In this document: piece after piece, positions 381 through 1,767 of the stretch
How the letters are laid out: each line of letters starts with the position of its first letter
Position numbering within the stretch: position 1 is the stretch's first letter
From: an uncultured Candidatus Saccharibacteria bacterium
GTDB taxonomy: Bacteria; Patescibacteriota; SICC01; CAYSOT01
NCBI GenBank assembly: GCA_964432765.1
Contig: CAYSOT010000003.1
Span: forward strand, 1-61,486
Length of the DNA: 61,486 nt
Reading direction: 5' to 3'
Notes under the pieces: model-generated
What the model was told of the DNA's origin: nothing
What the model saw: only the letters and a program-made list of their open reading frames with translations
The model's database searches: none
Made by a program: the position numbers and the translations under genes

Positions 381-410
381 GGGTTCAGTGTAGTGGTGTT
401 ATTCATATAG

Positions 411-500
411 AAAAAGAAACGGGACCGAGGTCAGTGCGTGGGAGAGCATGTTGATGGCGTTTGAGCCAATGCTTCCGAGCTTTGAACCTGGTCCCGTCTC
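411..500 (-). terminator. Intrinsic terminator or 3' closing helix of the non-coding unit
   Basis: Minus strand GAGACGGGACC-AGG (500-487) pairs with CCT-C-GGTCCCGTTTC (430-416), followed by TTTTT. Confidence 0.6.
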
Positions 501-831
501 ATCTTTCGGAGCGCACTGTTTGATCCCTTCACGGAGGTGCGCGATCAACGAAAGATGAAGTGGTTGGGAGCCGATGAGTAACTCGGATCATCGGCTCCCG
601 GTCCCGGGCGGCGGGAGGTTCACGCATGCCGCGAGGTGCGGGCGGCGGCGGCGTGGGCGCCATCAGACGAGGTACCGAGCATTTCTCCTCATCTGTTGTC
701 GGGGACCGAGCCTCGGTCAGCGGCTGGTCCTGGTTTTCCGCGAGGCGGTGCTCAGCGAGCAAATCGCCTCAGTCTCCTCGCCATGGTCGGCTAGCGAGAA
801 GGGCAGCGCCGTCGTCTCTGACGACAGCATA

Positions 832-913
832 TGAGGGTGGCAGGGATTGAACCTACCCGTCGCATTTTGTTCCCCGAACCGCGCGACGTCGTCCACCGAG
901 TGGACACACCCTC
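832..913 (-). ncRNA. tRNA-like cloverleaf lacking a canonical anticodon loop
   Basis: Acceptor GAGGGTG/CACCCTC+A; D-like arm GTCCA-CTCGG-TGGAC; central arm CGTCGC...GCGACG; T arm GTAGG-TTCAATC-CCTGC. Confidence 0.65.
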
Positions 914-1007
914 CGTGACGGCTACCCGAGCTCCGTGCCCCCCTGGCGAGGAGTGGTGGGTAACCATCGGGTTCCGCTTTTCCCGTGAACCGTCATGGGC
1001 GGAACCA

Positions 1008-1096
1008 AGGCACTGATAGGATTCGAACCTACGACCTTCTCCTTAACATGGAGACGCTCTGCCGCGTGGGATGAACCACATCTGAGCTACAGTGCC
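1008..1096 (-). tRNA. Atypical tRNA with GTT (Asn) anticodon and an expanded D-loop
   Basis: GGCACTG/CAGTGCC acceptor; GCTC/GAGC D-stem with a 24-nt loop; TCTCC-ATGTTAA-GGAGA; AGGTC; GTAGG-TTCGAAT-CCTAT; discriminator T; no CCA. Confidence 0.75.
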
Positions 1097-1153
1097 GCGT
1101 ACTGCAGGCTGGTCTCTGTATGCAAAGGCCAAGCTGCAGTACGCTTATTACGA

Positions 1154-1166
1154 TTTTCAAAGAGCG
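1154..1166 (-). promoter_or_regulatory. boxA-like antitermination element
   Basis: CGCTCTTTGAAAA immediately after the predicted TSS; resembles rrn boxA (GCTCTTTAACA). Confidence 0.55.
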
Positions 1167-1174
1167 ACTAATCC

Positions 1175-1203
1175 ACAGTACAGATGTCCCAGAAGGCTGT
1201 CAA
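1175..1203 (-). promoter_or_regulatory. Sigma70-type promoter for the non-coding unit
   Basis: TTGACA (1203-1198), 17 bp, TACTGT (1180-1175). Confidence 0.7.
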
Positions 1204-1248
1204 GACAAGCTTAACCACAGTAAATTTCCAGCCCTCAGGGATCTGTAA

Positions 1249-1767
1249 CTAGAGGTCGTCGAGCGGCGACTTTTCGTCTAGATCGCTTCGGCGCTTGGCG
1301 GACTCTTCTGCTTCTGCTTCTTCTTCGTCAGCCGGGGTTGCTGGATCATCATCTACGTTTTCGCCCGTCGACTCATCAATTTCTTCATCGAGATCGTCAG
1401 GATTATCCCGTAGTGCATCACTTTCATGCTGTGCTTCGCGCAACTCGGTTTCTGCATGGCTTGCTTCTTGACGTGGTGTTTCAAGCTCAACTGCGGCGGT
1501 TCCTGTCGGTTCCTTGGTGCTGCCTTCCGGCTCAATTATCTTCATATTGACTCGTGCGTCGTTCTTGGCACCAACCACCTTGAGAAGGGTTCGAACTGCC
1601 TTCGCTGTCTGACCTGCTTTACCAATGATCTTCCCCATATCGTCAGGGTGAACGGTTACAGAAATTAGCACTCCCATTTCATCAACGGTGCGGTCTACCT
1701 GAACAGAGTCGGGGTTATCTACGATCGCCTTCAGAACATATTCTACAAACTGCTGATCTTGCTCCAT
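1249..1767 (-). CDS. khpA: KH-domain RNA-binding protein (KhpA/YlqC family) with an acidic tail
   Basis: YVLKAIVDNPDSV...VHPDDMGKIIGKAGQTAKAVRTLL (GxxG loop), located after rpsP. Confidence 0.9.
   Translation of the reverse strand: MEQDQQFVEYVLKAIVDNPDSVQVDRTVDEMGVLISVTVHPDDMGKIIGKAGQTAKAVRTLLKVVGAKNDARVNMKIIEPEGSTKEPTGTAAVELETPRQEASHAETELREAQHESDALRDNPDDLDEEIDESTGENVDDDPATPADEEEAEAEESAKRRSDLDEKSPLDDL

Follow-up and report, generated by a model that had tools for sequence, protein, structure and literature searches.

A putative boxA-led non-coding unit with tRNA modules between khpA and trmD in a Candidatus Saccharibacteria contig

The contig CAYSOT010000003.1 of an uncultured Candidatus Saccharibacteria bacterium raises the question of what is encoded in the 868-nt gap (positions 381–1248, minus strand) between a khpA-like gene and trmD. 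The original prediction, made from the sequence of this 61-kb stretch (61,486 nt, hereafter the window), placed there a single 'ornate' non-coding RNA (ncRNA) of about 760 nt with its own promoter and embedded tRNA modules. Coordinates are those of the whole window, and the unit is read on the minus strand. Every feature named in that prediction was found at its coordinates on this strand, in the order of promoter, boxA, leader hairpin, tRNA, tRNA-like cloverleaf, several successive hairpins, and a long closing hairpin with its U-tract. The gap may well hold a boxA-led non-coding unit that was derived from a tRNA operon and is processed into several RNAs, a reading for which we see about as much reason for belief as for doubt. 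The sequence comparison supports the non-coding nature of the unit, purifying selection, the presence of a tRNA, structure-preserving changes, and the conservation of the promoter and boxA. The claim of an own promoter with tRNA modules held, one module being a real tRNA and the other tRNA-derived, and the promoter and boxA are kept in nine lineages of this Patescibacteria clade, in which the payload that follows them varies.

Promoter, boxA and a tRNA-Asn with a D-loop hairpin

By its TrmD homologues, the organism belongs to an uncultured 'Patescibacteria group' clade of the candidate phyla radiation. Relatives of the locus were collected as contigs encoding the closest TrmD proteins, which gave eleven further lineages besides that of the window. 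One of them, L084 (TrmD 82% identical), served for the comparisons below. The promoter (1175–1203) was found as claimed and consists of TTGACA (1203–1198), a 17-nt spacer and TACTGT (1180–1175). The pattern TTGAC[AG]-N16-17-TAYAnT is located at the same position in nine lineages. The promoter is 69% identical to that of L084, and the identity just upstream of the -35 hexamer is 44%. A generic promoter/terminator scanner made no call on the minus strand of the unit; it skips this promoter because the -10 hexamer matches only three of six consensus positions. The -10 region with the start site, TACTGTGGATTAG (1168–1180), is repeated 42 nt upstream as TACTGTGGTTAAG (1210–1222), just past the khpA stop codon. 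This copy is only partly kept in L084; it may mark another start site or have arisen by chance.

The predicted boxA-like motif, GCTCTTTGAAAA at 1165–1154, proved to be the sole exact copy in the 61-kb window. Its conserved position and consensus match allow us to consider the element GCUCUUUGAAAA (1154–1165) a putative NusB/NusE site. The sequence GCTCTTTGAAA agrees at 10 of 11 positions with GYTCTTTAANA, which is the gamma-proteobacterial boxA consensus (Baniulyte et al. 2017, PMC5725501). Sequences resembling G[CT]TC[CT]TTGAAAA lie within a few bases downstream of the promoter in the relatives (nine lineages), and the segment from the transcription start site to boxA is 88% identical to that of L084. 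Elsewhere in the window, an ordinary tRNA gene (tRNA-Ala) is preceded by a short leader that lacks both a boxA and a hairpin. The 11-bp leader hairpin (1097–1107/1134–1144) was also confirmed; the whole structure (1097–1144; 11 + 3 + 5 bp; −30.6 kcal/mol) abuts the 5′ end of the tRNA and carries one compensatory change from G-C to A-U in L084.

The atypical tRNA that follows (1008–1096; anticodon GUU, Asn; discriminator U; no encoded CCA) was recognized by cmscan as Rfam RF00005 with 59.3 bits against a cut-off of 29, covering model positions 1–71. U8, A14, G18G19, U33, T54-psi55-C56, A58 and the R15:Y48 pair are all present. The D-loop departs from the normal size of about 7–11 nt: it comprises 24 nt, and cmscan placed 21 nt where the tRNA model expects 4. 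The insertion itself comprises 16 nt (1064–1079), lies between positions 17 and 18 and folds into a hairpin of 5 bp (UGUGG/CCACG). ARAGORN missed this tRNA in the window sequence; when the insert (1079–1064) was deleted in silico, the resulting 73-nt gene was called tRNA-Asn(gtt). The whole tRNA is 87% identical to its counterpart in L084, where the insert has 19 nt and shows three one-sided changes, all with pairing kept. A D-arm-like hairpin GCUCAG-GUGGGC...GCCCAC was also found in the lineage L108. Thus, the tRNA resembles canonical tRNA-Asn in its GUU anticodon, its universal tertiary nucleotides and its 3′ half, which is 85–90% identical to annotated phage tRNA-Asn genes. It differs in the hairpin of 16–19 nt (window and L084, respectively) between D-loop positions 17 and 18 and in its discriminator U, bacterial tRNA-Asn usually having G73. 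The tRNA itself looks fully functional. A search of the literature on D-loop insertions or ncRNAs in bacteria of the candidate phyla radiation (CPR) revealed nothing relevant.

Constraint and structure downstream of the tRNA

A blastn and nhmmer search with the whole gap against all loci showed that, tRNA segments aside, only the L084 lineage can be aligned, with 80% identity over 840 nt and scattered 1-nt indels. Identity is highest near trmD, reaching 0.91 in 405–560, 0.88 in 381–404 and 0.82 in 561–700, so that the 3′ 300 nt are 82–91% identical; it falls to 0.60 in 701–832. Third codon positions of the neighbouring genes showed identities of 0.58 (rpsP), 0.51 (khpA) and 0.33 (trmD). Since the segment identities mostly lie above this level, most of the unit is under purifying selection as non-coding sequence. 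The gap sequence recurs in three public contigs and is identical over the stretch that each covers. A metagenome search using a 20-mer from the best-conserved stretch gave one true match, identical to the L084 type, and three chance matches. A TrmD profile search of genome contigs was of no use for this comparison, the relatives among the matches listed having at most 57% identity. Multi-lineage MAFFT alignments were discarded as unreliable, the CUCGGUA hairpin of the lineage L103 being misplaced in them.

All ten helices listed in the original prediction are fully paired in the window sequence. Several hairpins carry compensatory changes in L084. In a curated consensus of 211 local pairs, 13 were changed on both sides with pairing kept, compared with 0–1 in slid controls. 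The structure predicted from the window alone retained 10 double changes versus 3.8 expected (p = 0.0025), and 30 of its pairs were broken versus 56 expected.

In the 3′ domain, hairpin 'a' (664–695) has a 9-bp stem and a 14-nt loop with GCUCGGUA, and hairpin 'b' (566–599) has a perfect 12-bp stem, which shows two compensatory double changes in L084, and the loop UCCGAGUUAC. Their counterparts in L103 are a hairpin with a wholly different stem and an identical CUCGGUA loop, and a 6+6-bp stem with the loop UCCGAG, respectively. The loops of 'a' and 'b' are complementary (CUCGG/CCGAG), and thus they may form a kissing contact; the chance of such complementarity for one loop pair was estimated by us at about 0.06. 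Next to hairpin 'b', the single-stranded motif CCCAACCACUUC (557–568) is conserved, and no internal pairing partner scoring above shuffled controls was found for it. In the form CCCRACCACTTC, this CCCRACCACUUC motif occurs in the unit of the window lineage, L084, L103 (twice) and L108, and is absent from about 100 other loci. A search of viral contigs for the hairpin-b loop with the motif gave 31 matches, all of them due to chance and without the hairpin. The elements follow in the same order in the window and L103 (CUCGGUA-loop hairpin, UCCGAG-loop hairpin, CCCRACCACUUC), L108 having only the motif. As the loops are shared and the stems are wholly different, these are conserved loops on covarying stems.

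The domain is completed by two further hairpins that lie in 405–560, the best-conserved segment of the unit. HP-A (499–558; −22.9 kcal/mol) is formed by UCAUCUUUCG...CGAAAGAUGA around GCGCAC/GUGCGC, and its helix 557–549/508–500 shows two adjacent compensatory changes in L084. HP-B (498–419, 82 nt) with the U-tract UUCUUUUUCU (418–409) spans 409–498 (−37.5 kcal/mol) and is the closing helix that had been predicted. It has the form of an intrinsic terminator, as the G+C-rich stem GACGGGACCAGG...CCUCGGUCCCGU is directly followed by the U-tract. The scanner overlooked it because a sub-structure of 56 nt takes the place of the 'loop'. None of the 27 pairs of HP-B differs in L084, which makes it uninformative on covariation.

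The second tRNA-shaped element (832–913) folds as a cloverleaf on its own. The predicted tRNA-like fold is therefore present, but degenerate: the best match was tRNA-Sec with 19.3 bits against 47 (E = 0.67), and ARAGORN made no call at default settings and read Pro(cgg) at a relaxed threshold. The element has a 7-bp acceptor stem, a 6-bp D hairpin, a T arm GUAGG-UUCAAUC-CCUGC and a 6-bp 'anticodon' stem with a loop of 19 nt (17 in L084) instead of 7 nt. The enlarged loop includes the conserved 9-mer UUCGGGGAA (878–870). Identity to L084 is 0.74; one compensatory and seven one-sided changes keep their pairs, the sole break within the element being acceptor position 2 (A.C in L084).

Between the two modules, the spacer (917–1006) folds into an 8-bp GGUUCCGC/GCGGAACC stem (1006–969), invariant in L084, and a branched hairpin (968–917) with one compensatory and two consistent changes. 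The predicted helix 921–927/958–964 is paired in the window and broken in L084, the sole alignable relative. The middle section (701–831), with small hairpins at 825–811, 800–775 and 718–704, evolves fast, its identity being near the third-codon-position level. Pairing is kept in the helix 800–775 through two double and two single changes, 718–704 has three changes to G.U, and the helix 742–747/765–770, although paired in the window as predicted, is partly broken in L084. Long-range complements of 12–13 nt were noted at 953–941/786–774, which bracket the tRNA-like module, and at 921–910/537–526, which link the 5′ edge of the module to the HP-A loop. They show no covariation in L084, and about one repeat of this size is expected by chance according to our own estimate.

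The GC-richness that had been noted was borne out (50 of 60 bases at 601–660 are G or C); the GC content is 0.61–0.70 over 551–1000 versus about 0.5 in the flanks. The argument that G.U pairs favour the minus strand lacks statistical support, since one-sided changes gave 14–15 G.U versus 10 A.C (p = 0.2–0.3). What places the unit on the minus strand is its tRNA, the promoter and its boxA, the U-tract and the direction in which the flanking genes run.

The reported lack of hallmarks of RNase P, signal recognition particle (SRP) RNA and transfer-messenger RNA (tmRNA) was borne out by Rfam cmscan over 300–1350 on both strands at E ≤ 10 and by ARAGORN, which found no tmRNA. In the same scan, tRNA and the sub-threshold tRNA-Sec were the only families to match, no riboswitch model scored, and GOLLD, ROOL, HEARO, OLE and raiA were found neither here nor in the relatives. 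RNase P, tmRNA (including permuted), SRP, 6S, T-box, group I intron, YrlA and retron RNA were rejected on the basis of Rfam, ARAGORN and anatomy. A phage or plasmid origin was also rejected, as nothing in 806 nt matched apart from the tRNA 3′ half.

The same locus in related lineages

In the window, the gap lies downstream of a KhpA-type KH-domain gene (1249–1767, minus strand, PF13083) and upstream of trmD (ATG at 380–378, minus strand, PF01746), which runs off the window. The genes rpsP and smc are located further upstream of the unit and uvrB further downstream. In the standard rpsP operon, the KH gene and trmD are separated by rimM, a gene that the rpsP-khpA-trmD cluster of the window lacks. 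The KhpA-like protein (172 aa; 1249–1767) and S16 (174 aa; 1780–2304) both carry long acidic Ala/Glu-rich C-terminal tails, and their lengths are about twice those usual for these proteins.

Across the lineages, the payload comprises from zero to three tRNAs, several of them aberrant, and 0.4–1 kb of structured RNA that looks unrelated from one to another. A hairpin with a U-tract also closes the unit in L088, L105, L103, L108, L090, L093 and L095. In L091 (3948–4000) and L107 (1269–1330) the khpA-trmD gap is only 53–62 nt long, so that these lineages either lost the unit or never acquired it. In L090 and L093, three tRNAs and no long RNA are followed by the terminator and an ORF (open reading frame) of about 100 aa. 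The arrays occupy L093:3258-3509 and L090:3248-3514, and their first tRNA has G33 and scores 37–40 bits. The second tRNA of L093 has the anticodon AUA and the third a 6-nt anticodon loop; in L090 these places are taken by tRNA-Ala(GGC), a proper tRNA with G3:U70, and by tRNA-Phe(GAA). The ORF of about 100 aa, located directly upstream of trmD (L090:3660-3965, L093:3659-3955, L103:1719-2057, L108:1026-1319), is 47% identical between L090 and L093. All four copies share G-[DN]-L-x-x-A...[ST]-G-D-x-x-L; no Pfam match was found, and the ORF is absent from the window.

The lineage L095 combines 600 nt with one class II tRNA (L095:3305-3400, 96 nt), which has the anticodon CUA and was labelled 'Pyl' by ARAGORN. 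Its long variable arm and discriminator G make it serine-like, and by its anticodon it would be of the amber-suppressor type; the neighbouring genes have normal lengths, so nothing points to stop-codon recoding. In L105, a 72-nt class I tRNA (L105:809-880; 71.6 bits) with the anticodon CGA (codon UCG) is accompanied by 800 nt. Its body is homologous to that of the window tRNA and has no long variable arm, which bacterial tRNA-Ser needs. This looks like an anticodon switch on one scaffold shared with the tRNA-Asn of the window. L088 contains no tRNA and has in common with L105 only the 5′ 60 nt and 3′ 136 nt. In L103, about 800 nt accompany a mere acceptor/T minihelix (L103:845-881, GCCCCGG-A-GCGGG-UCAAAU-CCCGU-CCGGGGC) where relatives have a full tRNA, and L108 contains a D-arm-like sequence with a hairpin insertion. 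The anticodon regions of the tRNA-shaped modules thus comprise GUU, CGA, GGC, AUA, CUA, a 6-nt loop and a 19-nt loop, the L103 minihelix lacking one. That the acceptor, T and D arms of these tRNA shapes persist while the anticodon loops drift freely is the pattern expected if shape, and not decoding only, is selected. From this pattern, the modules probably direct cutting by RNase P and RNase Z.

Possible roles and known systems

If the unit is a processed derivative of a tRNA operon, RNA polymerase would start at TTGACA-17-TACTGT, and the nascent boxA GCUCUUUGAAAA would recruit NusB/NusE, carrying an untranslated RNA of about 770 nt past Rho as in rRNA operons. Transcription would stop mostly at the long hairpin with the U-tract, 28 nt before trmD. 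RNase P and 3′-processing enzymes would recognize the tRNA-Asn(GUU) and the degenerate tRNA-Pro-like cloverleaf, and the cuts would separate the mature tRNA and the tRNA-like RNA from the leader hairpin, the spacer RNA and a 3′ RNA of about 420 nt. This last RNA (831–409), by its sequence the best-conserved and least explained part of the unit, would be a clade-specific product that, with its complementary-loop hairpins and CCCAACCACUUC, probably binds a protein or another RNA. CPR genomes are small, and the retention of 0.5–1.3 kb of structured, promoter-driven non-coding sequence in them suggests that it is used.

Several observations weigh against this interpretation. The evidence is comparative and thin, and it is a lead, not a result: only two lineages, the window and L084, can be aligned, and a stricter null, in which RNAalifold was run on column-shuffled alignments, gave 8.7 ± 2.7 double changes by chance versus the 13 observed, so that the covariation is supportive and not conclusive. 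Two covariance models were built from two sequences and were too narrow to extend the comparison. With model R1 (hairpin 'a' to the motif), no match had an E-value below 0.4 and even L103 was missed; model R2, which covers the tRNA-like module, detected no further copies in the other lineages. The -10 hexamer is weak, and the plus strand folds almost as well as the minus strand (z = −5.4 and −6.0, respectively, versus shuffles), with no significant G.U asymmetry. The payload turns over fast between sister lineages, which is unusual for an RNA of fixed function. If the tRNA-Asn is the sole one of the genome, conservation of the 5′ half would be largely self-explained.

The most serious rival assigns the 3′ domain (about 700–409) chiefly to trmD, as a cis-acting leader or attenuator working through read-through of HP-B from the unit or from the rpsP promoter. 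The co-transcribed tRNA would then simply be cut off, as in the tufB operon of E. coli. It is a serious rival because the terminator lies 28 nt before a trmD that lacks a visible promoter and Shine-Dalgarno sequence: none is recognizable in 378–408, while khpA and rpsP have GGAGG and AAGGAG. The increase of conservation towards trmD also fits a leader. In addition, no convincing terminator lies between khpA and the unit, and in L091 and L107 trmD directly follows khpA and hence belongs to the rpsP operon. At a relaxed threshold, ARAGORN assigns Pro(cgg) to the tRNA-like loop, and tRNA-Pro(CGG)-type tRNAs are TrmD substrates; the Pro(CGG)-like module, with UUCGGGGAA as a G36G37-type loop, could titrate TrmD or report on it. 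However, L090, L093, L103 and L108 have a separate ORF between the unit terminator and trmD, and thus the adjacency is not conserved. Moreover, the hairpin of HP-B is strong and its U-tract good, no pairing that could serve as an alternative antiterminator was identified, no known riboswitch or T-box scores, and the tRNA-like module occurs only in the window/L084 lineage. A chiefly cis-acting role is thus rather unlikely, but it is compatible with the interpretation of the 5′ half as a tRNA unit, and both roles may coexist. A combination of the two is an improbable proposal at present. In it, a boxA-protected precursor punctuated by tRNA-shaped modules would give a so far undescribed, clade-specific RNA of about 420 nt with a kissing-loop core and the CCCRACCACUUC motif, and the decayed Pro(CGG)-like module, in which the TrmD target context UUCGGGGAA is preserved, would act as a decoy or sensor coupling TrmD activity to trmD expression.

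It is also unlikely, and more so than the leader role, that the locus is a decaying tRNA array in which only the tRNA-Asn is functional and the cloverleaf and hairpins are functionless remnants. The three-tRNA arrays of L090 and L093 with their defects (6-nt anticodon loop, G33, AUA) and the lone minihelix of L103 do suggest decay. HP-B holds a T-arm-like CCAGGUUCAA, also found in a T arm of L093, and the T-arm regions of the two tRNA-shaped modules of the window are direct repeats. The differing payloads of sister lineages and the nearly neutral 701–832 fit decay as well. The strong constraint on 409–700 contradicts pure decay: the 3′ 300 nt are 82–91% identical versus 33–58% at synonymous-type sites nearby, hairpins 'a', 'b' and HP-A show compensatory changes, and the loops and CCCRACCACUUC are kept where stems are replaced. 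The arms of the tRNA-like module stay paired through eight changes. Furthermore, the genomes of the clade appear small (the largest contigs with these TrmD proteins are about 0.6–0.8 Mb), and 0.5–1 kb of junk would be unusual in them.

The idea that the whole stretch of about 770 nt is one intact 'ornate' RNA like GOLLD or ROOL, with the tRNA modules as structural domains, was the core of the original prediction and is now very improbable. High GC content, many stable hairpins, the folding z-score of −6, the possible kissing loops and the long-range complementary 12–13-mers are in its favour, and boxA suggests that a long untranslated RNA must be completed. Nevertheless, no match to GOLLD, ROOL or another large family was found, and chance would give about one long-range repeat of that size, the repeats not being supported by covariation in L084. 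The tRNA retains all features of a processed, decoding tRNA. The unit is built of modules, with a middle third under hardly any constraint; its domain content is not conserved between lineages, and L091 and L107 have no unit. On the single architecture over many genomes that marks such RNAs, the evidence comes from two alignable lineages and two more that share only the loops and one motif, with covariation that is suggestive but not robust. Of the two alternatives first offered, one large RNA or a precursor cut into several, the sequence data are better accounted for by the precursor. Finally, a hidden small protein-coding gene is hardly credible: ORFs of 49–86 aa occur on both strands of the gap and gene callers placed a 67-aa ORF on the contig of L086, but, in line with the original view that no ORF here is credible, none survives the 1-nt indels against L084, at which the similarity shifts frame, and none is conserved in frame between the window and L084; derivation of the 3′ domain from the ORF of about 100 aa of L090/L093 was ruled out by tblastn, which found no counterpart here.

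If the unit does work as a processed tRNA operon derivative, it would mean that boxA-type antitermination serves a tRNA/ncRNA unit in bacteria, that a tRNA tolerates a whole extra hairpin in its D-loop, and that tRNA genes can decay into shape-only processing or regulatory modules. The aberrant tRNAs of the locus (CUA; CGA on a class I body; 6-nt anticodon loop) would form a natural series on tRNA identity change and loss of decoding.

A comparison with known systems indicates where the unit belongs. Bacterial tRNA operons may include other genes or functional spacers, as in thrU-tyrU-glyT-thrT-tufB of E. coli and the 3′ external transcribed spacer 3′ETS-leuZ from the glyW-cysT-leuZ precursor. 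Like them, the unit has a promoter and a tRNA followed by non-tRNA RNA, presumably on one transcript, whose parts would be freed by cuts at the borders, and a released spacer of the 3′ETS-leuZ type can have its own function. Unlike them, it has a structured, GC-rich non-tRNA part of about 600 nt, a boxA leader and one unusable tRNA-shaped module.

No report of boxA in front of such a tRNA or ncRNA unit is known to us. The likeness to the boxA/Nus leaders of rRNA operons and of other untranslated or regulated transcripts lies in the putative boxA about 10–20 nt past the likely start and in the stable hairpin that follows (PMC5725501); the differences are that boxA here precedes a tRNA/ncRNA unit and that its 10/11 match is to the gamma-proteobacterial consensus. 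GOLLD (RF01998) and ROOL (RF03087) are similar as large, GC-rich ncRNAs with many hairpins beside tRNA sequence. They differ in that the unit gives no covariance-model match at E ≤ 10, has no phage context and a far narrower distribution, and is modular with variable content. MALAT1-mascRNA and the mitochondrial 'tRNA punctuation' are tRNA-like processing signals of eukaryotes and organelles. As in these systems, the anticodon region here is free to vary, the acceptor and T arms are kept, and a role in RNase P/Z cleavage is proposed; unlike those eukaryotic and organellar cases, the idea rests here on the conservation pattern. Thus, the tRNA operon with extra RNA, the boxA leader and the tRNA-like processing signal are of known kinds, and what is new is their combination, together with the hairpin in the D-loop and a clade-specific 3′ RNA without a match among known families.

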